Below are positions 9,100 to 62,303 of a stretch of DNA of 64,000 nucleotides, one piece after another (within the stretch, counting starts at the first letter, position 1; each line of letters opens with the position of its first letter). This DNA comes from Candidatus Adamsella avium. Its GTDB lineage: Bacteria; Cyanobacteriota; Vampirovibrionia; Gastranaerophilales; CAJFVJ01. The position numbers and the translations under genes are program-made. A model generated the notes under the pieces. That model did not search any database and was not told where the DNA came from. It saw only the letters and a program-made list of their open reading frames with translations. Location: positions 255,090 through 319,089 of the forward strand of contig CAJFVJ010000003.1 of assembly GCA_904420445.1 (NCBI GenBank), given 5' to 3'.

Positions 9100-9975
9100 T
9101 CAGTTAACAGAGTTAAATCTGTCATTTATGTTTTTTATTCTTTTCATGATTCTGTTTATTATTGCCTGTGCGTACTCATCGCCATCACTCAGATTGAATT
9201 TAAGCGATGATAAAAACGCAACAATATCTCTAATCTCTTTTGTTGACATCTCTGCGCTGAACGCATTCAGAGCTTTTGTTGTAACATCGAGCATATAGAG
9301 TTTTTCCATATTATTATTCGTATACTCTTCTATGTTATAGACAATATCTGATATATGTTCAAAAAACTCCGGACCTAAAGAACGGGATAACACCTCAACA
9401 GCCACCAGCTTCGGGTTTAACTCGAGGGTTTTATCTTTGATAATATCCTTCAACATCTCATCAATATAAGAAGATTTTTTAGGGAGGATATTTATAAAAC
9501 GCTGCAGCAGCCTATCTGCCAGTTTATAGTCATTATCCTGTTTGCAGGCAGATATATAAATTTTTCTAAGAACATCTATATAATACTGCCAATCCGAAGC
9601 TTCATTATCTCTTAGGGCATCAACAATGCTTTCTGATGCAAGAATAAGCCCTTCTTTATTATCAAATGTTTCGTCCATAAGATAATCATCTTTGATTGTA
9701 TTATCTATAAATTTTGCCAAGACATAATGCTTTTTCTTATTGAGAAAAATCCCTGAAATGATTGTCTTCAACGTATCTTGATAGTTCTCATCAAATAAAG
9801 CATCTTCAAGTATTTCATATAAAAACCTGTTGTCTGATTTCAATACTGCTGTCAGAACAAACTGTCTTGCAGTATGGTCACCGTCTTGGACAATCCCCTC
9901 ATTCAGCTCATTAGCCATCTCACAGAGTTTTTGAAATTTTATTTGTGCATCTTCTAATATATCTTTTTCTTGCAT
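9100..9975 (-). CDS. Hypothetical all-helical protein, co-transcribed upstream of era
   Basis: 291 aa. No recognisable motif. A 12-nt gap separates it from era. Confidence 0.6.
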   Translation of the reverse strand: MQEKDILEDAQIKFQKLCEMANELNEGIVQDGDHTARQFVLTAVLKSDNRFLYEILEDALFDENYQDTLKTIISGIFLNKKKHYVLAKFIDNTIKDDYLMDETFDNKEGLILASESIVDALRDNEASDWQYYIDVLRKIYISACKQDNDYKLADRLLQRFINILPKKSSYIDEMLKDIIKDKTLELNPKLVAVEVLSRSLGPEFFEHISDIVYNIEEYTNNNMEKLYMLDVTTKALNAFSAEMSTKEIRDIVAFLSSLKFNLSDGDEYAQAIINRIMKRIKNINDRFNSVN

Positions 9976-16834: not shown

Positions 16835-17230
16835 ATGGGATACGCAATGTTTAGTTCCAGGGAAATTATGCTCGTAAGCCAGATTAATGACTTGCAGTAT
16901 AGATTGACCGAATTGACGATGAAACAACAGGATTTATCACAAATGAGCAGTGCTTACACTACACAAGCTCAAACTTACTACAACTTTACTACAGGACAGA
17001 TGGATCAGGATGCACTTGATGAAGCAATCAACAACGCATCTCCGGGAACAAATGTAAATTCTCTACAGGATCCAAACGCTACACTGCAGCAAATAAGCAA
17101 TGCTGAAAAACAAATCGAGATGGAATCAAAACGACTCCAAACTCAACTTCAAGCTAAGCAAACCGAATTAGAAGCTATTTCTCAAGGCAAAGAACAGGGC
17201 ATCAAAAACGCTACACCTAAGTACGCTTAG
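16835..17230 (+). CDS. Hypothetical helical-hairpin protein, paralog 1 (conserved MGYAMF N-terminus and EQGIKNATPKYA C-terminus)
   Basis: 131 aa with a strong SD AAAGGAG 7 nt upstream. It is about 80% identical to 17596..17991, with many synonymous differences, and has its own terminator. Confidence 0.85.
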   Translation: MGYAMFSSREIMLVSQINDLQYRLTELTMKQQDLSQMSSAYTTQAQTYYNFTTGQMDQDALDEAINNASPGTNVNSLQDPNATLQQISNAEKQIEMESKRLQTQLQAKQTELEAISQGKEQGIKNATPKYA

Positions 17231-17595: not shown

Positions 17596-17991
17596 ATGGG
17601 CTACGCAATGTTTTGTTCAAGAAAGATCATGCTCGTCAACCAGATCAATGATCTTCAGTATCGTTTAACAGAATTAACGATGAAACAACAGGATTTATCA
17701 CAACTGAGCAGTGCTTACACTACACAAGCTCAATCTTATTACAACTTCACAACCGGTCAGATGGATCAAGCAGCATTAGATAAGGCTATCGCAGATTCTT
17801 CACCAAATTCTGGAGTAAACTCATTCCAGGATCCTGAAGCAAACCTCAAGAAAATAAGCAACGCAGAAAAACAAATTGAGATGGAATCAAAACGTCTTCA
17901 AACACAATTGCAAGCAAAACAAACCGAATTAGAAGCCGTTGAAAAAGGTGAAGAACAGGGCATCAAAAACGCTACACCTAAATACGCTTAA
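17596..17991 (+). CDS. Hypothetical helical-hairpin protein, paralog 2
   Basis: 131 aa. The SD and the upstream 15-mer are identical to those of paralog 1. Confidence 0.85.
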   Translation: MGYAMFCSRKIMLVNQINDLQYRLTELTMKQQDLSQLSSAYTTQAQSYYNFTTGQMDQAALDKAIADSSPNSGVNSFQDPEANLKKISNAEKQIEMESKRLQTQLQAKQTELEAVEKGEEQGIKNATPKYA

Positions 17992-18071: not shown

Positions 18072-18100
18072 AGAGAATGCTATCTAGCATTCTCTTTTTC
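18072..18100. terminator. Bidirectional terminator overlapping the lgt stop codon
   Basis: Stem agagaatgc / gcattctct, with an A-run before and a T-run after. Confidence 0.7.
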
Positions 18101-18872
18101 TGTTTGTATAATATATCAAACCTGCTGAAATACATATTATAAGAATACTTATAACTGAAGCAGCGGGAACTCCGGATATATTTAAAACACTATCTATTCT
18201 TATAGACTCTATCACCAATCTTAGAGCCGAATACAATATTAAATAAGAAAAAAATATCCCTCCATCTCTCCTAGCAAACAGTTTTCTCATAATAAAGAAC
18301 AAAATCAAAAATATAACAACATCTCCGATTCCCTCATATAAAAAAGTCGGATGATATGTATCATAATCCATGTACTCAACCCTACGCTTCTCTATCGGAA
18401 TAAAAACACCCCACGGCAAATCTGTCGGTCTGCCATAAGCTTCTGAGTTGAAAAAATTCCCTATCCTTCCTATTGCCTGAGCAACAGGAAGCCCGAAAGA
18501 AACAATATCAGCATACTTCAAAAAAGACAGATTATGCTTTTTCAAAAAGATATAACCGCCCAAAATCCCGCCTAAAACAGCACCATGAATAGATAACCCT
18601 CCATTCTGTATCATAAAAACTTCAAACGGATTTTCCATATAATAGCCTGAGCACAACAGAACATAATACACCCTCGCACCGACTATTCCACAAGGAATTA
18701 TCCACAGCATAAGGTCATAGAGGGTTTCTCTCTCCAAAGAGGGATAATATTTTTTCATCACAAAAAAAGAAACAAAAAATCCTGCAACTATAGCAAGTGC
18801 AATGAATAATCCGTAATAATAAATATTTATCCCCCAAAAACTAAATAAAACATCAGAGGGAGATTGAAACAT
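18084..18872 (-). CDS. lgt: Prolipoprotein diacylglyceryl transferase
   Basis: 262 aa. It is a polytopic membrane protein with the Lgt block GRIGNFFNSEAYGRPTDLPWGV. Confidence 0.95.
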   Translation of the reverse strand: MFQSPSDVLFSFWGINIYYYGLFIALAIVAGFFVSFFVMKKYYPSLERETLYDLMLWIIPCGIVGARVYYVLLCSGYYMENPFEVFMIQNGGLSIHGAVLGGILGGYIFLKKHNLSFLKYADIVSFGLPVAQAIGRIGNFFNSEAYGRPTDLPWGVFIPIEKRRVEYMDYDTYHPTFLYEGIGDVVIFLILFFIMRKLFARRDGGIFFSYLILYSALRLVIESIRIDSVLNISGVPAASVISILIICISAGLIYYTNRKREC

Positions 18873-30070: not shown

Positions 30071-31444
30071 ATGACATCAGTAAATGGTTATTCAAATTAT
30101 TCACAAACAGGCATGTATATTCCTTCTTACATGCAAACACCCGGGACAACAACCACAACAACAAACACAACAACTACAACGACTTCTGAGAAAAAAGACG
30201 GAGTAGGAATGGGAACAGTCCTTCTTGCAGGTGCCGCAATTCTTGGAGGTATAATTACCTTTAAAAACGGAGGTCTGAAGAATACCTTCAAACAAATCGG
30301 GAAATTATTCGGCAAAAACGCAGATGACGCAGCCAAAAATCTGAACCTGCTCGAAAAAGGCAAAGCTCTTCTGAAAGGGACAAATCCAAACAAAGGCACT
30401 GACGCAGTAGGAGAAGCTCTTTCTGCAGCAGCAGGGAAAACTGAAAAAGCAAAATGGTCTGAAACCCTGGGCGATATGTACAAAAGTATAAAAAATAAAT
30501 TTACAACAAAATCTAATACTGATGATATAGCTCAAGAAGCAGCAAAAAGAACAGCAAATGAACAGGCAGCAAAAGAATTTGCTGAACAAAGCCAAAAAGA
30601 ATATTTCGGCAGAGTTGACCAAACAACAGGAAAATCCGCCCAAGAAAGTGCAGCTGTTTTCGAAGCAGCAGAAAGAAAAGCCAATAAACAGGCAGCAAAA
30701 GCAGCTGCTGAACAAAGTCAGAAAGAATATTTCGGCATAGTAGACCAAACAACGGGAAAATCCGCTCAAGAAAGCGCAGCAGTATTTGAAGCAGCAGAAA
30801 GAACAGCTAATGAACAGGCAGCAAAAGAATTTGCTGAACAAAGTCAGAAAAAATATTTCGGCATAGTAGACCAAACAACGGGAAAATCCGCTCAAGAAAG
30901 CGCCGATGTATTTAAGGCTAACGATGCAAAAGTTTCTCTACAACACAATAAAGCAGATGCAAAAGAAGCAATCGCAAAATATGGAAAAGATTCTGTGGAA
31001 GGTAAAGAAGCTGCCAGAGACCTTGCTAGAATTGAAGAACTTGAAAATGCACAAAAATCAGCTGATAAAATAGCACAAGAAGCGGCAGAAAGAACAGCCA
31101 ATGAACAAGCAGCAAAAGCAGCAGCAGAACAAAGTCAGAAAGAATATTTCGGCAGAGTAGACCAAACAACAGGAAAATCAGCTAAAGAAAGTGCAGCAGT
31201 ATTTGAAGAAGCTGCCGAAAAAGCAAAAGTGTCTCTCCAACAAAGGAAAACAGAAGCAGAAGCAACAATCGCCCAATATGGCAAAGACTCTATAGAAGGT
31301 AAAGAAGCTGCCAGAGACTTAGTAAAAATAGAAAACGAACTTAAAAACTATACAACAACATCACAACCAACAAATATACAAGAAATACTTGATGAAATTG
31401 CACAGGAAGAACAAATTGCAGACTTAAGACAAGCAGGCAGATAA
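30071..31444 (+). CDS. Repeat-rich membrane-anchored protein (poly-Thr tract, Gly/Ala TM helix, 42-aa repeats)
   Basis: 457 aa. The N-terminus contains TTTTTTNTTTTTT and then the TM segment GMGTVLLAGAAILGGII. There are four copies of R(T/K)AN(E/K)QAAK..AEQSQKEYFG.VDQTTGKSAQESAAVFE and two copies of a second repeat of about 40 aa (KVSLQ...YGKDS.EGKEAARDL). Confidence 0.75.
   Translation: MTSVNGYSNYSQTGMYIPSYMQTPGTTTTTTNTTTTTTSEKKDGVGMGTVLLAGAAILGGIITFKNGGLKNTFKQIGKLFGKNADDAAKNLNLLEKGKALLKGTNPNKGTDAVGEALSAAAGKTEKAKWSETLGDMYKSIKNKFTTKSNTDDIAQEAAKRTANEQAAKEFAEQSQKEYFGRVDQTTGKSAQESAAVFEAAERKANKQAAKAAAEQSQKEYFGIVDQTTGKSAQESAAVFEAAERTANEQAAKEFAEQSQKKYFGIVDQTTGKSAQESADVFKANDAKVSLQHNKADAKEAIAKYGKDSVEGKEAARDLARIEELENAQKSADKIAQEAAERTANEQAAKAAAEQSQKEYFGRVDQTTGKSAKESAAVFEEAAEKAKVSLQQRKTEAEATIAQYGKDSIEGKEAARDLVKIENELKNYTTTSQPTNIQEILDEIAQEEQIADLRQAGR
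30548..30925 (+). repeat. Three tandem 126-bp coding repeats (a fourth dispersed copy at about 31090-31215)
   Basis: The period is 126 nt, read from recurring ...aacaggcagcaaaag...gaatatttcggc... at about 30548, 30674 and 30800. Copies 2 and 3 are nearly identical at the DNA level. Confidence 0.85.
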
Positions 31445-33743: not shown

Positions 33744-34556
33744 ATGACCAAAATAGCCATAATTTATCACAGCGGACGGGGACATACAAAAAGACTTGCA
33801 ACGGCTGTTTTAAACGGCTGCTTATCGATAAACGGTATCGAGGCAAAACTTATTGATGTCGAACATGTAAAAGAAAATATGGATTTTATCAATGAGTCCT
33901 CTGCTCTTATTTTTGGAAGCCCGACCTACATGGGGTCTGTATCAGCCCCCTTCAAGCAATTTATGGATGATACCTCAAAAATATGGCTCAAACAGGAATG
34001 GTCAAACAAACTTGCCGCAGGTTTTGTCAACTCCGGCTGGCCAAGCGGCGATAAGTTTAACACAATGCTACAGCTCTCGGTTTTTGCCGCACAACACGGG
34101 ATGATATGGGTAAACCCTGCAATAATCCCAGGAAACCTTTCAAAAGACCCGTCAAAAAAAGACATTAACAGACTAGGGAGCTTCTTAGGCGTTATGTCTA
34201 TGGCAGAGTTCAGTGCTTCCTGCGAAAAAGAACCGCCTGAAGGCGATATGCAAACAGCGGAATTACTCGGAAAAAGAGTAGCAAAAGCTGCAACTATATG
34301 GTCTAATGGGTTAAATAATACAAAAATTCAAGAGAATGATACAATGGAAACAAACTCTCAATCGGATACTACAAAAGAAGAAGGAGAAAAGAATATGAAA
34401 AAATATGTTTGTACAGTATGCAACTACGTATATGACCCTGCTGTAGGCGACCCTGATAACGGCATAGCCCCAGGCACAGCTTTTGAAGATATTCCGGAAG
34501 ACTGGGTATGCCCTCTCTGCGGTGTAGGTAAAGATCAATTTGAAGTTGAGGAATAA
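33744..34556 (+). CDS. Flavodoxin-like (WrbA-type) / rubredoxin fusion protein
   Basis: 270 aa. The N-terminus is a flavodoxin fold ([17 protein letters not shown]...FGSPTYMG). The C-terminus is a rubredoxin ([10 protein letters not shown]...WVCPLCG). Confidence 0.85.
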
Positions 34557-35731
34557 TGAAAAAGATTACTGAGAATATATTTTACTGCGGAGTCGAACAT
34601 CATGACAGAAGACTGTTCGACCAGCTTGTCCCGCTGCCATGCGGTACAACATACAACTCTTACCTTGTCAAAGGCAGTGAAAAAACAGCATTAATTGACA
34701 CAGTTTATCCTGAAAAAGCTGAAGAATTAATTAATAAGCTAAAAGAAGCAGGCATAAACAAAATAGATTATATAATCTGCAACCATGGCGAGCAGGATCA
34801 CTCCGGTTCTTTGAACGAAATTCTAGAACTCTATCCTGCTGCAACCGTCGTGACAAATGCAAAATGTAAAGAGTTTATCATGGAAATGCTCCATGTTGAT
34901 GAATCAAAATTCAAAGTAATAACTGACCAGGAAACACTATCTTTAGGCAATGTTACTCTGCAATTTTTGATATCACCATGGGTGCACTGGCCTGATACAA
35001 TGTTCACCTATGTGGTGGAAGATAAAGCCCTGTTCACAACGGACTTTCTCGGTGCTCACTACCCGACAAGCGAAAAGAATATAGACAAAAGCGGAGATAA
35101 AGAACTGACAGAAGCAGCAAAACGCTATTACGCAGAAATTATGATGCCTTTCAGATCTTTCTGCGCAAAATACGTCAAAAAAATCAGAGATTTGAACGTA
35201 AAATACCTGCTTCCAAGCCATGGACCTTACTATTCAAATCCTGACTTCATTCTTGATACTTACGAAGAATGGACATCAGATACTCCCAAAAATCTGGTCG
35301 TCATCCCGTATGTTTCTATGTATGGAAGCACTGAGCTGCTTGTTGACTACCTCAAACAATCGCTTGAAGAAAAAGGCGTCGAAGTTAAGCTCTTTGACCT
35401 CGTAAAATCAGATGTCGGAGAACTTGCTATGGAACTTGTTGATGCAGCAACCATCGTTGTCGGAACATCAATGGTTCTTGCAGGTCCTCACCCTTCGGCC
35501 ATAAACGGAGCTTATCTCATTAATGCTCTCCGCCCTAAAGCAAAATACTTCTCTGTCGTCGGTTCTTACGGCTGGGGAGGAAATATGGAAAACAAACTGG
35601 CTGAAATATTGGGCAACCTGAAAGTCGAAAAACTCGACTCTGTCATAATCAAAGGAAAACCGACAAATGATGACTTTATCAAAGTCGATGAACTGGCAGA
35701 GAAAATAGCTGAAAAACATAAATCATTATAA
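34556..35731 (+). CDS. Flavodiiron protein (FprA / rubredoxin:oxygen oxidoreductase type)
   Basis: 391 aa. It has a metallo-beta-lactamase-like diiron motif (NHGEQDHSGS) and a C-terminal flavodoxin domain. An ATGA overlap joins it to the upstream gene. Confidence 0.9.
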   Translation: MKKITENIFYCGVEHHDRRLFDQLVPLPCGTTYNSYLVKGSEKTALIDTVYPEKAEELINKLKEAGINKIDYIICNHGEQDHSGSLNEILELYPAATVVTNAKCKEFIMEMLHVDESKFKVITDQETLSLGNVTLQFLISPWVHWPDTMFTYVVEDKALFTTDFLGAHYPTSEKNIDKSGDKELTEAAKRYYAEIMMPFRSFCAKYVKKIRDLNVKYLLPSHGPYYSNPDFILDTYEEWTSDTPKNLVVIPYVSMYGSTELLVDYLKQSLEEKGVEVKLFDLVKSDVGELAMELVDAATIVVGTSMVLAGPHPSAINGAYLINALRPKAKYFSVVGSYGWGGNMENKLAEILGNLKVEKLDSVIIKGKPTNDDFIKVDELAEKIAEKHKSL

Positions 35732-35889: not shown

Positions 35890-36336
35890 TTATGCATACC
35901 TTGGAACTGATTGTTTAATTCCTTGTTCTTCACCTTGTTCAACAGCTTGCAGTTCCTGTTGTAATGCTGCCAATTTTGTTTCAAGTTGTTCTCTTTTCAT
36001 CTCAATTTGTTTTTCTGAATTGCTTATTTGAGCCTGAATATTCGTCAAATAAGTTTCATCAAAAACCATAGACCCCATACCATCCGTTGACATCTGAACA
36101 AATGAATACCCTGATGTCTGAGATGCAGAATCTGCTTCCATCAAAATTTGGTTTACACCGTATTTTGTCTTCTGTCCTGAATTTGCGAACTCTTGTTGAG
36201 TTACTGTACCATCACCAATTACACCGCCGAGAGAAGTCAAATCCATTTGATTCTGATAAAGTTGAGTGATTTGAAACTGCAAGTCAGAAATCTGACTGAT
36301 AATCATCAACTTTCTAGTCGTTAACATTGCATACAT
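35890..36336 (-). CDS. Hypothetical helical-hairpin protein, paralog 3 (divergent)
   Basis: 148 aa with an RBS GGAGG. It shares the N-terminal block YAMLTTRKLMIISQISDLQFQITQL and the C-terminal block SNSEKQIEM...AVEQGEEQGIKQSVPRYA with 16835 and 17596. Confidence 0.8.
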   Translation of the reverse strand: MYAMLTTRKLMIISQISDLQFQITQLYQNQMDLTSLGGVIGDGTVTQQEFANSGQKTKYGVNQILMEADSASQTSGYSFVQMSTDGMGSMVFDETYLTNIQAQISNSEKQIEMKREQLETKLAALQQELQAVEQGEEQGIKQSVPRYA

Positions 36337-36580: not shown

Positions 36581-36612
36581 CAAAAGAGGACAAAGATAAA
36601 TCTTTGTCCTCC
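36581..36612 (-). terminator. Terminator of the SLH protein gene
   Basis: The minus strand reads ggaggacaaagatttatctttgtcctcttttg. Confidence 0.8.
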
Positions 36613-36633: not shown

Positions 36634-38805
36634 TTATTTGCCCTGGCAGCCGAAAGAAATGGTAACTTTTTCATTCGGGTTGATGCTGGCAATCTTCATA
36701 CCTTTCGGATTGACGAGGTATGCAACTTCATCGCTTGTAATATTAAATATACCGGCTGCACCGCTGACAGCTGTTCTTGTTACGTCTATAGGAGCCATAA
36801 CCAGAGCAGTAGCAGCTTCACCGACACTTCTTGCAGAAGCGCCGAATTTACCTTGAAGAATTTCGCCGCCTGCAATACCTGTTGAGCCGACAACCTGCTC
36901 AGCAGCATTACCTGTTGCAATCAATGCACCGCCGAGAGTTCTTCCGACAGTACCCAATACCTGACCTGTAAATGAGAACGGAGCCTCAAACAGTCTTGCA
37001 ACAATATTAGGTGTTTTCTGCTGTTGAACTTCTGCACTCAATATTTGTCTTGGCAGCTCTGTTTTGCATTTTCCGTTTTGTATATCCAAGAGAGCAATTT
37101 TCATAGCACCCTGGCATTTGCCGCTTGGTCTGATTACTTCAACAACTCTGCCGTGTACTTTTGAATTGCAAGGATAATTTACACCGTTAATAGTAACCGG
37201 TTCAAGTGTTTTAGCAACAAATCTGTCGCCTACACGGTTGTTTTTGGCACTCAGCTGGTCATCAACCTTTATACATATTGTCGGAACAGTAACAACCTGC
37301 TCTTTCTGAACCATAGCCGCCTGACCTGTCGGTTCGCAGTCACATGCTGTTGTTTCAGCGGGGTCAATACCGAGAGCAATTCTTGACTGAGCAATCATTG
37401 CAGCCACATCGGCTCTTGATGCGTTTTTCTGAGGAGCAATCATATCAGGATGAGGACTGTCTTCGAGAACACCTTGTTTAAGAGCCTTGGCTACACCGAC
37501 TTTAGCCCAATCCTGTACATCGCATCCGTCTTTGTAACCTTTGAGGATTTCATCAGCGTCACATTCACTCATAGGACAATTGAATGCTTTTGAGATGGTA
37601 GTCATTGCTTCTGCTCTTGAAACGGGTTTTCTCGGGAAGAATTTGTTGTTAGGATATCCTGCCATATAACCGTTTTCAACAGATTTTATGATAGAGTCAT
37701 TTGCCCAGTTATAAGCGGGAACATCAGAAAACATACTTCTTTCACAGGATGTATCAGCCTGAAGATTGAACCCGTGCGCAATCAAACTTGCAAATTCAGC
37801 TCTTGATACGGGGACATTAGGTTTGAATGTTCTGTCAGGATAACCTGCAATAACACTCTTTGCCGTCAGCTTGTTAATATCGCAGCTTGCCCAGAAATTA
37901 TCGGGGACATCCGGAAAAACATCCATCATCGGAGCGGCAGCCCCTGTTACATTTGATGGAACAGTAATAGGTTCATAATATTTTTTCAGAACTTCTTTGC
38001 TCGATTGAGTTTTGATTGTCATAGGGCACTGAGCACCGGCAAAATTCATGGGATTGCGAGAAACACCTACACCGTTAATATCACTTCCCGCTGCGCAAGG
38101 GTCATTATAACAAGGAAGCGAGGCAGCAGCGCCTGTTATAGGCATAATTGTATCGCATCCGCAAGGAGCAGCAGCCCCTGTCATCGGAACACCGAAATCA
38201 CATCCGCAGTTCCCGGCAGAGATAACAGGCATTTGGGATAAATTACAACCGTTCCTTGAAACTTGAATGCCGTCATTTCCGCTTAATCTCATCCAGTTTG
38301 GAGTTGCAGCGGATAATGAAGTAGATCCTGCGCTAAAAATTGAAGCAGGATATGCATAAGCCTGGATGCCCTTTTCCAATTCTCCGCAAGCGCTGTTTGG
38401 ACAAACTCCGCAGGTAGGTTTTGATTTTTCGGGACATGGGTCTAAGATAGGACAAGCAGGTCCTGTTTCACAAGGGTCACAAGGATCACATGGGTCACAA
38501 TCACATGGTGCCGCAGGACAAGGGTCACATGGGTCATCACATGGATCACAATCGCATGGAGCAGCAGGACAAACAGGAACCGCAGGACAAGGATTTGCAG
38601 TTTGAAGCGGACATGCACCGCCTGTTACAACAGGCAACTCCGATTTTTTTGCAACTTCTCGAAAACCGCTTTCGAAAACTTGAGATGAACTCGGAGCGGA
38701 GAACATGCTTAAATCAGCTTCTGCTGCACCTCCGACCTGAGTTCCGGCAGTAATTAATCCCATAGAAACAATCACTGCCGCTAAAGTTAACTTTCTAAAT
38801 TTCAT
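36634..38805 (-). CDS. SLH-domain cell-envelope protein with an N-terminal Cys/Asp/Pro repeat block and a C-terminal Gly-zipper region
   Basis: 723 aa with a signal peptide (...QVGGAAEA). It has three SLH repeats (FPDVPDNFWA..., FSDVPAYNWAN..., DVQDWAKVGV...) and a PCDCDPCDDPCDPC... block. The P-x-TGAA motif occurs four times. Confidence 0.85.
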   Translation of the reverse strand: MKFRKLTLAAVIVSMGLITAGTQVGGAAEADLSMFSAPSSSQVFESGFREVAKKSELPVVTGGACPLQTANPCPAVPVCPAAPCDCDPCDDPCDPCPAAPCDCDPCDPCDPCETGPACPILDPCPEKSKPTCGVCPNSACGELEKGIQAYAYPASIFSAGSTSLSAATPNWMRLSGNDGIQVSRNGCNLSQMPVISAGNCGCDFGVPMTGAAAPCGCDTIMPITGAAASLPCYNDPCAAGSDINGVGVSRNPMNFAGAQCPMTIKTQSSKEVLKKYYEPITVPSNVTGAAAPMMDVFPDVPDNFWASCDINKLTAKSVIAGYPDRTFKPNVPVSRAEFASLIAHGFNLQADTSCERSMFSDVPAYNWANDSIIKSVENGYMAGYPNNKFFPRKPVSRAEAMTTISKAFNCPMSECDADEILKGYKDGCDVQDWAKVGVAKALKQGVLEDSPHPDMIAPQKNASRADVAAMIAQSRIALGIDPAETTACDCEPTGQAAMVQKEQVVTVPTICIKVDDQLSAKNNRVGDRFVAKTLEPVTINGVNYPCNSKVHGRVVEVIRPSGKCQGAMKIALLDIQNGKCKTELPRQILSAEVQQQKTPNIVARLFEAPFSFTGQVLGTVGRTLGGALIATGNAAEQVVGSTGIAGGEILQGKFGASARSVGEAATALVMAPIDVTRTAVSGAAGIFNITSDEVAYLVNPKGMKIASINPNEKVTISFGCQGK

Positions 38806-39097
38806 ATGTACCTCCTCTTACGTAAGAAATTCCCGGAAAAAAAATTCCGGTTATCTATCTTATTTTTTTGTTATACATTCCGTTAATATGAAATATTTGT
38901 TTTAACTGATTATTATGTTTTTTCTATCAAATAATCATTACCGGAAATGCTTATCTTCGAGGACAATTCTCTATGAAATCAAATTTGAAAAGACTCTTGA
39001 AATAAAGATTGTTAATAACCTTAAATTATTTGAATTTTCGGTTAAGCAATAATATAATTTCTAGAGAAGAGATGTTTTATTTTTTAAGGATAGTTAT

Positions 39098-39589
39098 ATG
39101 AATAAATTTAAAAAATTGTTTTTTAGCAGAATAAATTTTGTATGTCTACTGCTTTTATTTAATATAATATTCGGGTGTCTTTCTTGTTTTGCAGGAGAGC
39201 AGGATGTTGTCGTTTCGAAGTATGTCGAATATTACAAGAAAATTTTTGCAGCAAGCAATTACGAAAAATATGACAAGGTTACACAGGAATACGGTTCAAG
39301 AAACGTTTTGAGCATGACTCTTCCACCAAATGTTGATAAAAAAGTCATGAACATGTCTTATAAAAAACTTGTCAAACCTCTCTTAATACCTGACTATGAA
39401 CTTGTTTTTGAAAAAGTTACAATGAATCAAAACAAAGCGCATATGATTTTCCGTAGCAAATACAACGAAAACGTAAGGCTGTATGCAACAGGCATAAAAG
39501 AAAATACGGAGTGGAAATTCGATAAATCATATATAGTCGTCAAAGATAAGGATAACAACTTTGACCCGCTAAAGAGTGTTTCTTTTTAA
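39098..39589 (+). CDS. Hypothetical secreted protein
   Basis: 163 aa with an N-terminal signal (LLLLFNIIFGCLSCFAGE) and an RBS AAGGA. Confidence 0.5.
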   Translation: MNKFKKLFFSRINFVCLLLLFNIIFGCLSCFAGEQDVVVSKYVEYYKKIFAASNYEKYDKVTQEYGSRNVLSMTLPPNVDKKVMNMSYKKLVKPLLIPDYELVFEKVTMNQNKAHMIFRSKYNENVRLYATGIKENTEWKFDKSYIVVKDKDNNFDPLKSVSF

Positions 39590-39696
39590 GAAAAACTTTG
39601 ATTATTTAAGAGTGTTTATAGTATACTATCTCTAGAATAAAATCAGCCTATGGCATATAGAAGAAAAGCAACTAGCGGAGTTTGTTTATTATAGTT

Positions 39697-42600
39697 ATGC
39701 TGAATTTCAAATATATTAAGGAAAGAGCTTCCGCAGGCAGTTGGAGACGAGGGTATAATTATTTCAAAGAATCTCAATTGCTTGATATTTGTCGAGAAAA
39801 AAATATTGTCAAAGCGAAAGTAAAAGGCAATTTTCAAGATTTCTACAACATAGAGCTAACTTTTGATGAGGAGGGCATACACGCAAAATGTGACTGCCCG
39901 CTTGAAGAAGAATGGTGCAAGCATGCTGTTGCTGTCGGGCTTGAATCTGTCAAAAGACACTACTACGATGAATACATAACGGAAGAAACAGGAAAAACTT
40001 TTGAATACCCTGCTGAAAACCCTCCTCCGATTGAAAATTACAAATCAGCATTCAAATTTGTACTCAACCCTGATAAAAGACCGAAGTTTATCAGCATTCA
40101 AATAATCGAAAGAAAAACTCAAAAAGTTATCGATGATATAGAAGGACTTCTCAAAGCATTCATTGCTGCTCAAAAAGCTGACCCGTCTTTTGAGCTGAAT
40201 GATATACAAAGAGTCGAACTTGCCTTTGTTCAAGAATTATACAAACAGCTGAAGCCTTCGAAAAAATATCAGTGGTATGATATTCCCGTTCAAAAGTTTG
40301 AAACCTTCCTCAAATATATGAAACACCTTGAGGAGGTAATTGATTATGAATCACAAAAAAGACTTATTTTCTCTGATGATGAGTGGAAGCTTGTTCTTGC
40401 CGTGAATGTATCGGCAGTGGGTAATGTTTTGTTATCACTGCACTGGCATACGCCAAACTCAGAAGATGTTTTGCCTTTTGAAGAGGTTAAATATTTTTCA
40501 AGAACAATCAAATACGGACAGTACAAAAATCTTGTTTTCCCGACAAATGTTGCAGTGGCTATTTTGCCTCATTATCTGACAAAATCGACCTTCACTGATA
40601 TAAGAGATGCTGACGGCGGAAAATTTGTTTATGAAGAACTTCCAAAGTTGAAAAAGCTTATGGATGTTGAAATATCAGAAACACTTGAAAAACTCACCCT
40701 CTCTCAGCACCTTCCGAAAAATGTCGTAAAACTTACCTGGGATAATGAAGGAAAACTGAAAGCTTCTCTCGATTTTGACTACGACGGAATACTCGTTCCA
40801 TATAGCAAGCTCACGCAAAAAACGCCTTATGTAACGGTAAAATATCCGAAGGAAGATTTGATTTACTGGATAAAAAGAAATCTCAAGCTTGAAAAACGAG
40901 CCTATGAAATGCTTGTTGACTGCAAGTTTATCCCCATGCAGACAAATAACCTGTATCTTGATGAAGATGAAGCAATAGACTTTTTCAACTACTATATGCC
41001 GAGAGCAACCCGTGAATGGTTCTTCGAATCAGAACAGGATTTGGACTTTTTACAGCTGAGCGAGAAACCTCTTTATCTCACAGCCAAAGTTGATTTTGAC
41101 AAAAACTCGGACAGTTTTCATATCGAACTCGGAGCCAAAATAGGCAGAAACAGAGTGGATATGGAGGTGTTATATGATTATATGAGCCAGGGGAGAAAAT
41201 ATCTCTACATAAACAGAAAAGGATATGTGGAAGTTCCGACGCAAACATTATTTATGATAGGTAAAGCGCTGAGCGCTTTTGATGCAATCCAAACGGAAGA
41301 TAAAAAATATCACATAAAAACCTTCAGAGCGGGCATTATATCAGAGCTTGAAGAACTCGGTGTTGTCTTCTCCATGAGCAAAACTTTTGAAAAATTCTGG
41401 GGACAAATCAGCACATTCAATACAATGGAGCAAATAGAACTTCCAAAAGGTTTGCATGCTGACTTGAGAGAATATCAAATAAAAGGTCTTAACTGGCTGT
41501 GGTTCTTGTATTCTTACGGATTGAACGGAATACTCGCAGATGATATGGGGCTTGGGAAAACGCTCCAGGCACTTGCTATGATACAAAAAGCAAAAGAGGA
41601 AAATAAACAGAAAAAACCCGCTCTTGTCATCTGCCCTACGACAGTTGTGTTCAACTGGGAGAATGAAATCAAGAAGTTTACGCCGGACTTGAAAACACTG
41701 AATTTGACTGGCTCAACAAGAAGCAGCTTATATAAAAACATAAAATCCTCCGATATTGTCATCACTTCTTATGCAATAATCAGAAGGGATATAGAACTTC
41801 TGAAAAATCAAGAATTCAGATTTATTATCCTTGATGAAGCACAAAACATCAAAAATGCAGACTCTCAAACAGCACAGGCAACAAAACTGCTAAACGGCCA
41901 GCACAAGTTTGCCCTGTCAGGAACTCCAATCGAAAACAGACTTTCTGAACTGTGGTCTATATTCGATTTTCTCATGCCCGACTTTTTGTATGACATAAAC
42001 GAATTCAACTACCGTTTCGGCGTTCCGATTACGGAAAAAGGAGATAAAACAGTTGAATCAAGGTTGAAAAAACAAATTTATCCGTTCATACTTCGAAGGA
42101 TGAAGAGAGATGTAGCCAAAGACCTGCCTGATAAAGTTGAAAACATTGCATACTGCGAGATGACACCGGAGCAAAGAGAGTTCTATCTTGAAGTTCTTGA
42201 CAGTACAAAACAGGAAATCTTCAATAAAGCAGCAAACGGAGGTTTTGAAAAGAACAAACTCTCAATTTTTGCTGCCCTGCTGCGTCTGAGACAAATCTGC
42301 TGCCATCCCCGTCTGTTTGATAAAGATAACATCAGAGGAATAAATGAATCAGGTAAATTTGAGAAACTCAAATCAATGCTCGAAGAAATCGTTGAAGAGG
42401 GGCATAAGGTTTTGATTTTCAGCCAGTTTGTCGAGATGCTCGATATTATGAGAAGCTGGCTGCAAGAAAAAGGCATACGCCATGAATACCTCACGGGTCA
42501 GACAAAAGACAGAAAAGAAGCCGTTGAAAGATTCAATTCAACTCCGTCAATACCTATATTCCTCATAAGTCTAAAGGCAGGCGGCACGGGATTGAATTTA

Positions 42601-42864
42601 ACGGGAGCAGATTATGTCATTCACTATGACCCATGGTGGAACCCGGCTGTAGAAGACCAGGCAACGGACAGAGCTTATCGTATCGGGCAGACAAAGAAAG
42701 TCTTTGTCTATAGAATTATTACAAAAGGCACCGTAGAAGAAAAAATCCAAAAACTGAAAGAACGCAAACGAAATCTCGTTGACTCCGTCATATCAGCAGA
42801 CAGAGATATCGGAAAATCACTTACTTATGATGATTTGAAAGAAATTTTATCCCTTGATTATTGA
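39697..42864 (+). CDS. SNF2-family helicase/translocase with an N-terminal SWIM zinc finger
   Basis: The track ORF starts at TTG 39682; I prefer ATG 39697. It has a SWIM motif CDCPLEEEWCKH, helicase motifs DDMGLGKTLQ and DEAQNIKN, and the C-terminal block DPWWNPAVEDQATDRAYRIGQ. Confidence 0.9.
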   Translation: MLNFKYIKERASAGSWRRGYNYFKESQLLDICREKNIVKAKVKGNFQDFYNIELTFDEEGIHAKCDCPLEEEWCKHAVAVGLESVKRHYYDEYITEETGKTFEYPAENPPPIENYKSAFKFVLNPDKRPKFISIQIIERKTQKVIDDIEGLLKAFIAAQKADPSFELNDIQRVELAFVQELYKQLKPSKKYQWYDIPVQKFETFLKYMKHLEEVIDYESQKRLIFSDDEWKLVLAVNVSAVGNVLLSLHWHTPNSEDVLPFEEVKYFSRTIKYGQYKNLVFPTNVAVAILPHYLTKSTFTDIRDADGGKFVYEELPKLKKLMDVEISETLEKLTLSQHLPKNVVKLTWDNEGKLKASLDFDYDGILVPYSKLTQKTPYVTVKYPKEDLIYWIKRNLKLEKRAYEMLVDCKFIPMQTNNLYLDEDEAIDFFNYYMPRATREWFFESEQDLDFLQLSEKPLYLTAKVDFDKNSDSFHIELGAKIGRNRVDMEVLYDYMSQGRKYLYINRKGYVEVPTQTLFMIGKALSAFDAIQTEDKKYHIKTFRAGIISELEELGVVFSMSKTFEKFWGQISTFNTMEQIELPKGLHADLREYQIKGLNWLWFLYSYGLNGILADDMGLGKTLQALAMIQKAKEENKQKKPALVICPTTVVFNWENEIKKFTPDLKTLNLTGSTRSSLYKNIKSSDIVITSYAIIRRDIELLKNQEFRFIILDEAQNIKNADSQTAQATKLLNGQHKFALSGTPIENRLSELWSIFDFLMPDFLYDINEFNYRFGVPITEKGDKTVESRLKKQIYPFILRRMKRDVAKDLPDKVENIAYCEMTPEQREFYLEVLDSTKQEIFNKAANGGFEKNKLSIFAALLRLRQICCHPRLFDKDNIRGINESGKFEKLKSMLEEIVEEGHKVLIFSQFVEMLDIMRSWLQEKGIRHEYLTGQTKDRKEAVERFNSTPSIPIFLISLKAGGTGLNLTGADYVIHYDPWWNPAVEDQATDRAYRIGQTKKVFVYRIITKGTVEEKIQKLKERKRNLVDSVISADRDIGKSLTYDDLKEILSLDY

Positions 42865-45870: not shown

Positions 45871-46725
45871 TTATCTCGAGGCAACACAAAGCATCTCACG
45901 GGCAACTTTAGCAGCTGCAACCGTTGAATTTGCACTTGTATCCAAAAAAGGAGATAATTCTAACATATCCATCCCTACAATATTTGAGTCAGCCAAAACT
46001 TTGAAATAACTCATCAACTCACAGAAAGAAAATCCTCCCACCTCAGGAGTTCCGGTCCCTGGAAGAACTGATGGGTCAAGGACATCCAAATCAAGTGTAA
46101 TAAATACCGGTCTGCCTTTTATACCTGAAAGAATATCTCTGAAATCTTCCGCTGATTTCACAAGAGTATTATGCTTTTTCATCAGCTCAAACTCATAAGC
46201 TTCACCGGACCTTATCCCTATTTGCGAAAGGTTATCAAATCCGATTAAATCGGCAACTTTCTTTATAACTGTAGAGTGAGAGAGAGGCTCTCCCAGATAC
46301 TCATCTCTCAAATCCGTATGAGCATCAAAGTGAACAACATACAAATCAGGATATTTTTCATAATAAGCTTTTATAGCAGGATAAGAAACAAGATGCTCTC
46401 CACCTATACCAAAATATTTTTTTCCGGCAGCGAGAACTTCTCTTGCTGCGTCATATACCATATCAAGAACTCTCCGGGTGTTTCCAAAAGGTAAGTCAAT
46501 CTCTCCTGCATCATAAAAAGATATATCTTCCAAATCTTTATTGAAATAAGGCGAATAAGTTTCTATTCCTCTTGATGCAACTCTGATTTGCTCAGGTGCA
46601 AATCTTGTTCCAGGACGAAAAGAACATGTCCCGTCAAAGGGCACCCCAATCATAATCCACTCTGAATTATTTGGAGTTTCATCAGACGCCATCCAGTTTT
46701 TTGAAATAAACGGAGTCCTAAACAT
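45871..46725 (-). CDS. speB: Agmatinase
   Basis: 284 aa with ureohydrolase Mn motifs (HFDAHTDLR, LDLDVLDP). Confidence 0.9.
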   Translation of the reverse strand: MFRTPFISKNWMASDETPNNSEWIMIGVPFDGTCSFRPGTRFAPEQIRVASRGIETYSPYFNKDLEDISFYDAGEIDLPFGNTRRVLDMVYDAAREVLAAGKKYFGIGGEHLVSYPAIKAYYEKYPDLYVVHFDAHTDLRDEYLGEPLSHSTVIKKVADLIGFDNLSQIGIRSGEAYEFELMKKHNTLVKSAEDFRDILSGIKGRPVFITLDLDVLDPSVLPGTGTPEVGGFSFCELMSYFKVLADSNIVGMDMLELSPFLDTSANSTVAAAKVAREMLCVASR

Positions 46726-47572
46726 CTTGACCTACAAGCTTTTTCACAAAATTAGGCAGAGCAAACGCCGCTTTGTGAATATCAAGATTGTACAATTTTG
46801 CCTGTTTTGCAATCTTTTGAACCCTGTCTTCGGCAATAAAGCTCAGAGGTTCTACTGTATTTGAGCAGAATGCCCAGCTCCAGTATCCTCCGGGATAAGT
46901 CGGAATAGGTCCAAGGAATGTGTTAACTTTAGGGAAAGCTTTCCTCAAAAGAGGATACATCATCTTCATCTGTCTTTGATTAACAAAAGGAGATTCAGAT
47001 TGAGCACTCATAATCCCGCCTTCTTTGAGCGCTTTGTTTACATTTGAATAAAATTCTTCCGTAAACAACCCTTCACCAGGTCCCATCGGGTCGGTTGAAT
47101 CAATCAGAATGATATCAAATGCATCTTCCTGCTGTGAAATATAGTCAATGCCATCTCTAACCTGAATGTTAACTCTCTCATCATCAAGCATTCCGGCTAT
47201 TGATGGAAGATACTTCTTGCAGGCATCTATAACCATTCCATCTATCTCGCAGAGAACAACTTCTTTAACAGTATCATGTTTCAGAACTTCTCTCACTGTA
47301 CCGCCGTCACCTCCGCCGATAACAAGAACTCTCTCTGGATTAGGATGAGAATTCATAGGAATATGAGAAATCATCTCATGATAGAAAAATTCATCCCTCT
47401 CTGTAGTCATCACAAGACCATCAAGCAACAGAACTTTTCCTAAACCCTGTGTTTCCAATATATCAATTGTTTGATATTCTGTTTTGGCACTATAGAGAAC
47501 ATTTTGAGTTTCCATAGTAACTCCAAACCCAAGCTCATTAAGCTCGGTGTATTTTAAATCCATCACACCCAT
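46718..47572 (-). CDS. speE: Spermidine synthase
   Basis: 284 aa with VLVIGGGDGGTVREVLKH. It overlaps speB by 8 nt. Confidence 0.95.
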   Translation of the reverse strand: MGVMDLKYTELNELGFGVTMETQNVLYSAKTEYQTIDILETQGLGKVLLLDGLVMTTERDEFFYHEMISHIPMNSHPNPERVLVIGGGDGGTVREVLKHDTVKEVVLCEIDGMVIDACKKYLPSIAGMLDDERVNIQVRDGIDYISQQEDAFDIILIDSTDPMGPGEGLFTEEFYSNVNKALKEGGIMSAQSESPFVNQRQMKMMYPLLRKAFPKVNTFLGPIPTYPGGYWSWAFCSNTVEPLSFIAEDRVQKIAKQAKLYNLDIHKAAFALPNFVKKLVGQDV

Positions 47573-47593
47573 CCACGTAATCCTCTGTTGATA

Positions 47594-48094
47594 CTATGAA
47601 ATCTGTTCTTTCAATTCAAACGGTTTTTCATCCACTCTGAGCATATCTTTTGAAAGAATTCCTCTCTTCAAGATAGAGAAAGAACCTTTCTTTGATGAAA
47701 ATACTTTTTTCAGATAATCATAAGCTACTTTCGGGTCGCAAGATTCTCCGCAGGTAAATAAATCTACAGCAGCATACCCCAACTCTGGCCATGTATGAAT
47801 AGCCAGGTGCGACTCGGAGATAATAACAACTCCGCTTACACCATGCGGACTGAACATATGAAAACACTTCTGAACAACTGTTGCACCGCATTTTATTGCA
47901 GCATCAGTCATATGTTTTTCAACCAAATCAACACTGTTAATAATGTTCGAATCGCAGTCAAAAAATTCTGCTAGAATATGTCTTCCTAAATATGTTCCAT
48001 GCAATTCCTTTTTATTATCGGGAAGAGCAACCTGAGGTGATAGTATCAATTTCTGTCCTCTCCATTCTTCAAGATTAATATATACACAACACAA
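47594..48094 (-). CDS. speD: S-adenosylmethionine decarboxylase proenzyme (small, pyruvoyl type)
   Basis: It has the block GVSGVVIISESHLAIHTWPE with the ES self-cleavage site. The track start is a TTG. A TTG at 48049 after GGAGAGGA is an alternative, so the 5' end is uncertain. Confidence 0.88.
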   Translation of the reverse strand: MCCVYINLEEWRGQKLILSPQVALPDNKKELHGTYLGRHILAEFFDCDSNIINSVDLVEKHMTDAAIKCGATVVQKCFHMFSPHGVSGVVIISESHLAIHTWPELGYAAVDLFTCGESCDPKVAYDYLKKVFSSKKGSFSILKRGILSKDMLRVDEKPFELKEQIS

Positions 48095-57717: not shown

Positions 57718-58443
57718 ATGGAAAAAGATATAATAGGATTCTACGGATACCCTGACCCTCAGATATTTCAGCAGATAATAGAACAAAACAAAGATTGCGA
57801 AATCATAGACCTTGATGTCGACTACAACGCACCTGATGCAGGAATACTTCCTGAAGCCTACTGCGTCATAATCAAAAATATAATTAACAATTCAATAAAT
57901 CTGAAAAACCGTCTGAGATATATCCTCGCATCTGTCGGAGAAGAAAAATGCAACTCCGGGATGTTTGCCTCCATCATTCTGAAAGAACACGGACTTAATG
58001 TTATACAAACAAAATACGAGAAGTATCCGGATATTACATACCCCACCCCTGTTTCAAAAAGCAATCTGCCGCTTGCTGATAAAATAAACGCAATAACAGA
58101 AGGTATCTACAAACCCTGCACAAAAAAACTGACAGAAACAAAACCCACCATAGGCTTCTGGGGGGTGCCTCCGAATGACTTTAGAATATTGGAACTCTTC
58201 CCCGATACAACCCATGTCTATGGCTGGTTGAGATGTGTCGAGGCAAAAAGACCTGCTGACCTGGAGCTTGAAATGCAAATAGACAGAGATGTACCGACAG
58301 TCTTTTTCTCTCAAACTTTTTGCGGTAAAATGCAATTGGCAAAATACCTTGCCGATAAATACAACGGTCTTTACATCGACATCGATGACAAAACAAACAG
58401 ATCAGCCATTGCAAAAGTGGAAGCATTCATAAACCTGAGATAA
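57718..58443 (+). CDS. Half-size 2-hydroxyacyl-CoA dehydratase / BcrBC-like (HGD-D family-like) protein
   Basis: 241 aa with six Cys. The blocks IGFWGVPPNDFRILELF...WLRCVE and VFFSQTFCGKMQLAKYLADKYNGLYIDIDD resemble, from memory, the C-terminal half of HgdA/B-type subunits. It ends 4 nt upstream of the activase gene. Confidence 0.4.
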   Translation: MEKDIIGFYGYPDPQIFQQIIEQNKDCEIIDLDVDYNAPDAGILPEAYCVIIKNIINNSINLKNRLRYILASVGEEKCNSGMFASIILKEHGLNVIQTKYEKYPDITYPTPVSKSNLPLADKINAITEGIYKPCTKKLTETKPTIGFWGVPPNDFRILELFPDTTHVYGWLRCVEAKRPADLELEMQIDRDVPTVFFSQTFCGKMQLAKYLADKYNGLYIDIDDKTNRSAIAKVEAFINLR

Positions 58444-61505: not shown

Positions 61506-62303
61506 ATGAAAACAGAATGGATAAAAGAAACTCTTACATATAAAATATTCAAAATCATAAAAGAATCCCAATATGAGCTGTTTGAAACACTCGCTGGAAT
61601 AGGAGAAAACTTTTATCTCGTAATAAGAAACATCTTCAAAGTTAACCCGAAAGAAATACTCACTCAGGCATCAAGATTCGGTATAGACTCACTGCCTCTT
61701 GTTATAATCATCGTTTGTTTATCAACAATGATTATATCATTGCAGGTTTCTGAAAAAATGGTTGAACAGGGGGCAAAAGATTATATAGGCACGCTGATTA
61801 CCCTGATTACAATAAGAGAAATGGCACCGATTATGGGAAGCTTTGCCGTAATATCTATGATAGGCTCATCTATGGCGTCAGAAATAGCAACAATGAAAGT
61901 TACATCTCAGGTCGACGCAATCAAAGTAATGAAAATCAACCCCGTCACTTATCTCATAACTCCAAAAGTTATAGCAGGATTTGTTATTATGCCTTCGGTA
62001 ATTCTTATTTCTGCATTTATCGGCATTTTGAGCAGCTACATATCAGTAATCCTTACAACTGATATGTCTTTTCAATCCTTCCTTGACTCTGTATGGCTCG
62101 GGCTGTTTGAAAAAGACCTGTGGGCAATGAACCTGAAATCAGCCGTATTCGGTGGAATGATAGCGCTTATCAGTTCGTCAATCGGTTATAAAACAACAGG
62201 CGGGGCTATAGATGTAGGTATTGCAACGACAAATGCGGTCGTATGGTCTTTCACAAGCGTGGTTATTGCCGATTTCTTCATATCATACTTGTTTTTCTAC
62301 TAA
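61506..62303 (+). CDS. mlaE: MlaE-family ABC transporter permease
   Basis: 265 aa. It is a polytopic permease with the MlaE pattern (...RFGIDSLPLVIII...REMAPIM...). Confidence 0.88.
   Translation: MKTEWIKETLTYKIFKIIKESQYELFETLAGIGENFYLVIRNIFKVNPKEILTQASRFGIDSLPLVIIIVCLSTMIISLQVSEKMVEQGAKDYIGTLITLITIREMAPIMGSFAVISMIGSSMASEIATMKVTSQVDAIKVMKINPVTYLITPKVIAGFVIMPSVILISAFIGILSSYISVILTTDMSFQSFLDSVWLGLFEKDLWAMNLKSAVFGGMIALISSSIGYKTTGGAIDVGIATTNAVVWSFTSVVIADFFISYLFFY

Follow-up and report, generated by a model that had tools for sequence, protein, structure and literature searches.

A three-repeat SLH envelope protein of Gastranaerophilales with a conserved C-terminal module and a variable cysteine/proline-rich block

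To our knowledge, the only outer-membrane tethers based on the surface-layer homology (SLH) domain that have been recognised so far are the SLH-porins (OmpM/SlpA) and Omp-alpha of Thermotoga. Outer-membrane tethering is a central issue in the evolution of diderm and monoderm envelopes in the Terrabacteria. Tethering through SLH domains and CsaB is the rule in diderm Terrabacteria, including the Melainabacteria, and the OmpM/SlpA proteins are defined by an SLH domain combined with a beta-barrel (10.1101/2021.05.31.446380; PMC9388160). Omp-alpha consists of an SLH domain, a coiled coil and, at its C-terminus, a transmembrane helix (PMC9388160). The glycine-zipper 2TM lipoproteins SlyB, YfgH and YiaD are stabilisers embedded in the outer membrane, and YiaD adds an OmpA C-terminal domain (10.64898/2025.12.22.696046). 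Here we describe a protein from a 64-kb stretch of Candidatus Adamsella avium DNA, called the window below. The open reading frame (ORF) list and sequence comparison show a complete gene on the minus strand (36634..38805), a single ORF with an ATG start that encodes a precursor of 723 aa.

Anchoring by SLH domains is known. What is new is an SLH-anchored envelope protein that carries an undescribed, conserved partner module and a variable cysteine/proline-rich stalk. The function of this protein, which we refer to as the SLH protein, rests on inference.

A secreted protein with a three-repeat SLH domain

The SLH protein begins with a Sec signal peptide at aa 1-30 (38716..38805; this and the other coding features below are on the minus strand). 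It reads MKFRKLTLAAVIVSMGLITAGTQVGGAAEA and has an A-x-A site, and it is the A-x-A rule that gives the probable point of cleavage. The peptide ends in ...GGAAEA and has no cysteine, i.e. there is neither a lipobox nor an N-terminal lipid anchor. The highest Kyte-Doolittle window of the whole protein is centred on aa 15, in agreement with the signal peptide proposed in an initial annotation made from the sequence.

The SLH domain lies in the middle of the protein. Pfam SLH (PF00395) scores 82.9 bits (cutoff 20.8; E 1.5e-23) and is the only family that Pfam recognises in the 723 residues; NCBIfam returned nothing above its cutoffs. In a full-length AlphaFold2 model, built on 120 orthologues, the SLH unit (aa 297-480; 37366..37917) has a predicted local distance difference test score (pLDDT) above 90. 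Foldseek superposes this unit on the three-repeat SLH domain of Bacillus anthracis Sap (3pyw; E 5.7e-8, TMt 0.79, 178 residues) and also matches it to Paenibacillus alvei SpaA-SLH, including complexes with pyruvylated ManNAc. When the whole family was used for a profile search of the PDB, the SLH domains of Sap, OmpM and SlpA were found and nothing outside SLH. Each repeat hosts a TRAE-type motif (SRAE at 334-337, SRAE at 396-399 and SRAD at 463-466), and R335, E337 and R464 are the same in all 120 orthologues, R397 in at least 90% of them. With every tested SLH feature present, the protein is a genuine three-repeat member of the SLH-domain proteins. The initial annotation, which had placed three SLH repeats in mid-protein and called the product an SLH envelope protein, is borne out by the Pfam score, the Sap-like fold and the Sec signal peptide.

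Two regions separate the signal peptide from the SLH domain for most of the intervening length. A low-complexity block rich in Cys, Pro and Asp (aa 63-140; 38386..38619) is predicted to be disordered. It is followed by a conserved, mostly unstructured middle region (aa 141-296; 37918..38385) that contains an invariant (Q)AYAYP motif at aa 148-153, three TG-A-A-A-P motifs and a beta-hairpin, which AlphaFold2 predicts with confidence at aa 262-280. In the model aa 1-250 are essentially disordered except for short strands at about 131-149, and disorder is predicted for about half of the protein. Neither Pfam, NCBIfam, PDB profile searches nor the literature gave a match to the whole architecture, a combination that the initial annotation had not recognised.

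HIZ28984.1 of 'Candidatus Adamsella sp.' has the identical sequence, and the protein is found on many gut-metagenome contigs. At E<=0.001 it matches 347 proteins, the best 120 of which have 591-764 aa and 41-83% identity; query coverage is 99-100% for most of these and never below 83%. The full-length orthologues come from gut metagenome-assembled genomes (MAGs) of Gastranaerophilales/Melainabacteria and are annotated only as 'SLH domain-containing protein'. A host survey with the full-length alignment as query covered each GTDB species with one genome and yielded 445 relatives. The 80 best-matching ones, which we inspected, all come from gut MAGs of Gastranaerophilales, Melainabacteria or 'Cyanobacteria bacterium', apart from a few labels that are evidently wrong, and there is one copy of the gene per locus. 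No paralogue is present within the 64-kb window. In the literature searched, we found no paper that links SLH with a glycine zipper, treats SLH proteins in Gastranaerophilales or describes this family. Full-length orthologues are also carried by species-representative MAGs labelled 'uncultured Muribaculaceae' or 'Methanomethylophilaceae archaeon' (loci L019, L030, L033, L034, L037, L041, L052, L076 and L096); these are likely to be mislabelled or mis-binned assemblies.

The C-terminal module and the cysteine-rich block

The best-conserved part of the family is the C-terminal 240 aa. These consist of a beta domain (aa 497-600; 37006..37317; pLDDT 85-97; aa 497-593 in the full-length model), three helices rich in Gly, Ala and Ser that form the glycine-zipper-derived part (aa 601-678; 36772..37005), and closing strands with a tail (aa 679-723; 36637..36771). 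A separate AlphaFold2 model of aa 485-723 (pLDDT 76.5) shows the same small beta domain, three helices and two closing strands, with about ten short strands in 240 residues and no beta-barrel. The closing strands, at about 696-698 and 713-718, have a pLDDT of about 90. The 120 close orthologues show no variation at G614, G618, R622, G625 and N633, and at least 90% of them conserve G621 and E636. F718 and G719 are also invariant, and short subfamilies end in ...x-I-x-F. The glycine-rich stretch named in the initial annotation is present, and its view of the C-terminus as a glycine-zipper-type module rather than a porin barrel agrees with the model and with the lack of any match to a porin family or structure.

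No sequence match to the module was found in Pfam, NCBIfam or the PDB, and a PDB profile search with the C-terminal family was at chance level. The conserved 'GNAAE' stretch of helix 2 (aa 633-662; 36820-36909) aligns weakly (E 0.2) with the alpha-repeat region of VCX1, a vacuolar Ca2+/H+ exchanger (4k1c). This is probably a chance alignment, though N633 and E636 are invariant or nearly so.

Relatives of the module were sought with HMMER over 1.84 billion representative proteins, clustered at 50% identity. Only 88 clusters match at E<=0.001, in all of which the module is C-terminal, and look-ups of these clusters gave only 'hypothetical protein'. An SLH domain is present in 38 of the 43 representative clusters that have a complete module, with N-terminal Cys counts from 0 to 49; hence SLH and the C-terminal module form the conserved core of the family. 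The weakest matches are small proteins of about 160-200 aa with a signal peptide, a beta domain and then a hydrophobic glycine zipper; one of them (P0202) carries a lipobox. Comparison of the SLH-protein family with this small family by hhalign gave 99.4% (E 1.4e-21), with an alignment that begins in the beta domain and extends into the first part of the zipper, and an enlarged 82-sequence alignment of the small family gave 99% (E 8e-18). Small glycine-zipper proteins from other phyla, including one from an Acidobacteriota MAG, have this beta domain as well.

These small proteins lead to families that have names. Three members (P0246, P0244 and P0268) pass the Pfam cutoffs for Gly-zipper_YMGG, Gly-zipper_Omp and glycine zipper 2TM (PF05433/PF13441/PF13488), and others match the first 84 positions of TrbI (PF03743) with E 7e-6 to 7e-5, at 23-26 bits against a cutoff of 35. 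Against VirB10/TrbI C-terminal domains taken from ten plasmids, the small family scored 37.4 over 87 columns (71%, P 3.7e-5), compared with 7.8-15.5 for 21 control profiles made by reversing VirB10 or shuffling its columns. Compared directly, the SLH-protein family and VirB10 gave a non-significant 0.9%, and a merged profile 10.6%. A PDB profile search with the small family found only the glycine-zipper stretch of a Dot/Icm OmpA-family protein (E 0.08). Judged by these profile comparisons, the C-terminal module is securely related to small proteins that combine a TrbI-like half-barrel with a 2TM glycine zipper, and only plausibly a distant relative of VirB10. The relation to a beta domain plus zipper, as read from the sequences, goes beyond what the initial annotation proposed, and so does the assignment of the host to the Gastranaerophilales (Melainabacteria).

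Tandem arrangements were seen among the distant matches. In P0177 (1096 aa) the central part of the beta domain (query aa 43-90) is repeated about eight times in tandem, together with DUF7863, which indicates that this domain can form repeat arrays in contexts other than SLH. Two small-family members, P0194 and P0197, have two tandem copies of the unit of TrbI-like beta domain and glycine zipper.

The N-terminal block is of a very different character. Of the 38 Cys of the protein, 18 fall in residues 63-140, along with 19 Pro and 10 Asp, and there are five CxxC and two CxC motifs ahead of the YAYP motif. This is the Cys-Asp-Pro block that the initial annotation had pointed out and ascribed to short degenerate DNA repeats. 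Tandem Repeats Finder indeed reports a 9-bp repeat, TCACAAGGG on the plus strand (38468-38500), and a 51-bp unit present 2.1 times with 85% matches and 9-bp sub-repeats (38470..38572). They encode a duplicated 17-aa unit, PAAPCDCDPCD(D)PCDPC.

Orthologues carry a comparable block rich in Cys and Pro, with a median of 15 Cys ahead of the YAYP motif. Its sequence and length differ everywhere, although about six cysteines (C65, C79, C89, C106, C118 and C124) are at least 90% conserved. What persists among orthologues is therefore the Cys/Pro-rich character and these positions, and not the literal CDPC repeat that the initial annotation described. The two outcomes named there as fatal to that annotation, a match of the architecture to a described family and absence of the block from orthologues, are not what we found. 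Block length also varies among strains, as it had suggested checking: in 15 near-identical strain variants every indel falls within the block (deletion of D90, insertion of PCD/PCA at 110 and deletion of CPAVPV at 73-78), and the point differences, too, cluster in the first 140 residues. In subfamilies of 465-483 aa the AYA(Y/H)P motif, SLH and the C-terminal module are kept with only 1-6 N-terminal Cys, and across whole subfamilies that have the SLH and C-terminal core this number is 0-6. Because such low-Cys subfamilies keep both domains, the block is an accessory, repeat-driven and fast-evolving stalk, not the functional core. In a secreted protein, its CP/CxxC-rich make-up points to possible disulfide stapling or thiolate metal binding.

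A further peculiarity is the motif P-x-TG(G/A)A, which occurs four times as previously noted, starting at aa 61, 209, 224 and 287. The shorter TG-x-A occurs six times, with further copies at 114 and 493, compared with a mean of 0.13 and a maximum of 3 in 5000 composition shuffles, and with one copy in the roughly 36,000 residues of the other ORFs of the window. The copies adjoin cysteines or domain boundaries (ahead of SLH and ahead of the C-terminal module), and those at 224 and 287 are nearly invariant. In their P-x-T-G-A-A-A-P form they may resemble the Ala/Pro-rich surroundings of the acceptor sites at which enzymes of the PglL type attach O-glycans. A reading of P-x-TG-A as a sortase LPXTG signal was ruled out, as the motifs are internal and have no hydrophobic tail behind them.

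Possible roles in the envelope

We tentatively favour a role for the SLH protein as a non-porin strut between the cell wall and the outer membrane, with the SLH domain on the wall polymer, the C-terminal module at the outer membrane and a cross-linked Cys/Pro stalk. The protein would be exported by Sec as a secreted structural component of the diderm Gastranaerophilales envelope, and its SLH domain would dock non-covalently on pyruvylated secondary cell-wall polymer on the peptidoglycan; both steps, export and anchoring, are well supported. The C-terminal beta domain with its Gly/Ala-rich helical insertion may, probably in oligomeric form, make contact with the outer membrane on its inner face or with outer-membrane proteins. 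That the module reaches the outer membrane is something we infer. Such a strut might work like E. coli YiaD, with SLH providing the wall binding. The N-terminal Cys/Pro stalk would be an accessory extension, rigidified or cross-linked between chains by disulfides or thiolate-bound metal.

A number of observations weigh against the strut. The confidence of AlphaFold2 in the three helices is moderate (pLDDT 47-72). Their mean Kyte-Doolittle values are 0.57-0.80, with two to four charges each and the conserved R622, N633 and E636, compared with 1.5-1.7 (KD19) for the small relatives. There is no hydrophobic helical hairpin of the transmembrane type in the SLH protein, and the helical segment is amphipathic. 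Because of this low hydropathy, the charges and the conserved polar residues, a monomeric transmembrane hairpin is unlikely. The module may associate with the membrane peripherally or as an oligomer, bind outer-membrane proteins or be a purely soluble bundle. The Pfam TrbI model does not match the SLH protein, and the glycine-zipper models do not match it even at E<=1. Foldseek found no significant neighbour of the module in the PDB; the best was a chain of the Legionella Dot/Icm type IV secretion system (E 0.07, root-mean-square deviation 15 A), which we do not count as evidence. No conserved functional neighbour or partner gene was found in the 80 orthologous loci. In the 64 kb of the genome in view, csaB and dsb genes were not seen, and none of the scanned ORFs matched PS_pyruv_trans (CsaB).

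The main rival to the strut is a wall-bound periplasmic scaffold without outer-membrane contact, whose soluble C-terminal module would serve oligomerisation or ligand binding and whose Cys/Pro stalk would mesh neighbouring molecules. We regard this as possible but doubtful. It is favoured by the amphipathic, charged helices with their conserved polar residues, by the short strands and many charged residues of the beta domain, and by the lack of a lipobox. However, the homologous small proteins have glycine zippers that resemble transmembrane segments, and one is a lipoprotein, which argues for a membrane-associated ancestry of the module; the aromatic ending of the short subfamilies (...I-x-F) also speaks against a purely soluble scaffold. 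If the weight is placed on the block instead, the protein could be a wall-anchored, metallothionein-like binder of Zn, Cu or Cd, or a periplasmic thiol redox buffer, with the rest as an anchor. The 18 Cys in 78 residues, the five CxxC and two CxC motifs, the many Asp and the roughly six Cys positions that are at least 90% conserved would suit such a function, yet the block is the least conserved part, varies in length, contains the strain indels and has almost no Cys in subfamilies that retain both SLH and the C-terminal module, while the strongest conservation is at the C-terminus. From the sequence we consider it improbable that metal or redox chemistry is the main role.

Two readings would place the protein in a known class. 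A self-assembling, SLH-anchored surface array, i.e. an S-layer protein as in Bacillus or Paenibacillus, is suggested by the database name 'S-layer homology domain-containing' and by the three-repeat SLH domain that is typical of the Gram-positive Sap and SpaA. However, the host lineage is diderm, as indicated by MlaE and Lgt and, in the literature, by OmpM homologues in Melainabacteria, so the SLH ligand lies beneath the outer membrane. Neither the PDB profile search nor Foldseek shows similarity to S-layer assembly domains, and with half of the protein predicted to be disordered an array is very improbable. A divergent OmpM/SlpA-type SLH-porin with a C-terminal outer-membrane beta-barrel is effectively refuted. 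The por_somb (iron-uptake porin) model of NCBIfam matches weakly (21 bits; cutoff 100) and over the SLH segment only. In the models the 240 residues form about ten short strands and three helices, and a coiled coil is lacking. Pfam, NCBIfam, PDB and Foldseek searches matched neither a porin family nor a porin structure, and in place of a single N-terminal SLH repeat the protein has a triple SLH domain at its centre.

The strut can be taken further. The SLH protein might represent a second, non-porin class of connector between outer membrane and wall in Gastranaerophilales and possibly other Vampirovibrionia, in which a triple SLH domain is combined with a VirB10-like beta domain. Its zipper-derived insertion would oligomerise into or onto the outer membrane, related to the antenna of type IV secretion systems and to the SlyB/YiaD zippers, and disulfide-stapled stalks would form a covalent mesh. 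As a whole we judge this extended proposal to be unlikely. Should outer-membrane contact prove true, the protein would add a new architectural solution to tethering. This order-wide, single-copy protein, with a conserved partner domain that derives from a TrbI-like and glycine-zipper module, offers a first functional handle on the uncultured gut lineage Gastranaerophilales. The C-terminal module defines an unnamed domain family, and the repeat-encoded Cys/Pro block is a fast-evolving, strain-variable feature of the envelope.

Genomic setting and comparison with known systems

The gene has a strong Shine-Dalgarno sequence, AAGAGGAGG, read from the sequence 5 nt 5' of the ATG (38811..38819, minus strand). 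An intrinsic terminator with a 12-bp stem and a T run follows directly after the stop codon (36585..36612, minus strand). With its own ribosome-binding site and terminator, the gene is a monocistronic, stand-alone transcription unit. Operon and synteny clues to function were ruled out, as the gene forms a transcription unit of its own and no functional neighbour is conserved. Housekeeping genes lie around it and the window is ordinary chromosome; the gene is not part of a type IV secretion or conjugation cluster, and the 80 loci show no conserved partner. The window encodes the prolipoprotein diacylglyceryl transferase Lgt (18084-18872, minus strand) and MlaE, an outer-membrane lipid-asymmetry permease (61506-62303, plus strand), which is consistent with a lipoprotein-containing diderm envelope of the host.

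About 7 kb from the gene lies a polyamine cluster (45871-48094, minus strand) that encodes AdoMet decarboxylase and spermidine synthase together with a protein of the arginase family (agmatinase or arginase). The proximity, which is not kept in distant orthologous loci, is worth noting since the SLH domain of OmpM in Negativicutes binds peptidoglycan that is modified with polyamines. A rubredoxin/flavodoxin-type protein and a flavodiiron (FprA-like) protein adjoin each other at 33744-35731 (plus strand), a typical O2/NO detoxification pair of anaerobes. The SLH gene is flanked by two small ORFs without a Pfam match, one of 148 aa (35890-36336, minus strand) and one of 163 aa (39098-39589, plus strand), the latter with an N-terminal hydrophobic segment that ends in ...FGCLSCFA. 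Among the 80 orthologous loci both are seen in the same species only and are therefore lineage-specific. Next on the plus strand is a SNF2-family helicase of 1060 aa with a SNF2_assoc N-terminal region and a TTG start (39682-42864), which adjoins the SLH gene in two further loci (L018 and L078). Other sizeable ORFs lack a Pfam match at E<=1e-5: 30071-31444, 57718-58443, 16835-17230 and 17596-17991 on the plus strand and 9100-9975 on the minus strand.

Among described proteins, the SLH-porins of the OmpM/SlpA type (Veillonella OmpM, Deinococcus SlpA and cyanobacterial Slr1841/SomA) are likewise secreted envelope proteins of diderm Terrabacteria. They share an SLH domain with TRAE-type motifs, a presumed binding to pyruvylated wall polymer and a proposed link between wall and outer membrane. 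However, they consist of one N-terminal, trimerising SLH repeat, a coiled coil and a C-terminal beta-barrel porin, whereas the SLH protein has three SLH repeats in mid-protein, about 300 aa ahead of them, no coiled coil and no barrel. The absence of barrel and coiled coil and the different SLH arrangement place it outside OmpM/SlpA. Thermotoga Omp-alpha resembles the proposed strut in taking a helix-based, non-barrel route to the outer membrane, but its one SLH repeat is N-terminal and is combined with a long coiled coil and a single hydrophobic helix, and it has no sequence relationship to the SLH protein.

The C-terminal module has its own counterparts. The glycine-zipper 2TM lipoproteins SlyB, YfgH and especially YiaD likewise have zipper-type helices, which YiaD combines with a wall-binding domain. 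The SLH protein differs from them in having no lipid anchor and in binding the wall by SLH, not OmpA_C; its zipper is inserted in a beta domain and expanded to three amphipathic helices that fall outside the Pfam models. In VirB10, the C-terminal domain is a beta-barrel whose helical antenna extends to the outer membrane. This domain shows the same order of beta strands, helical insertion and closing strands as the C-terminal module, with a remote, sub-threshold profile similarity that runs via the small family over about 87 columns and is limited to the first half of the VirB10 barrel. Unlike VirB10, the SLH protein has no type IV secretion gene context. By formal tests it is neither a glycine-zipper lipoprotein (Pfam, lipobox, hydropathy) nor a TrbI protein (Pfam cutoff, secretion-system context).

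For the Cys block, the closest parallels are of composition only and imply no homology. The IgG3 hinge (CPRCPEPKSCDTPPPCPRCP) is a disulfide-rich proline hinge, and the chlamydial OmcA and OmcB are cysteine-rich envelope proteins; as in the block, dense CP/CxxC repeats occur there in an extracytoplasmic setting. By analogy, this likeness suggests that the stalks of neighbouring chains may be stapled together by disulfides.

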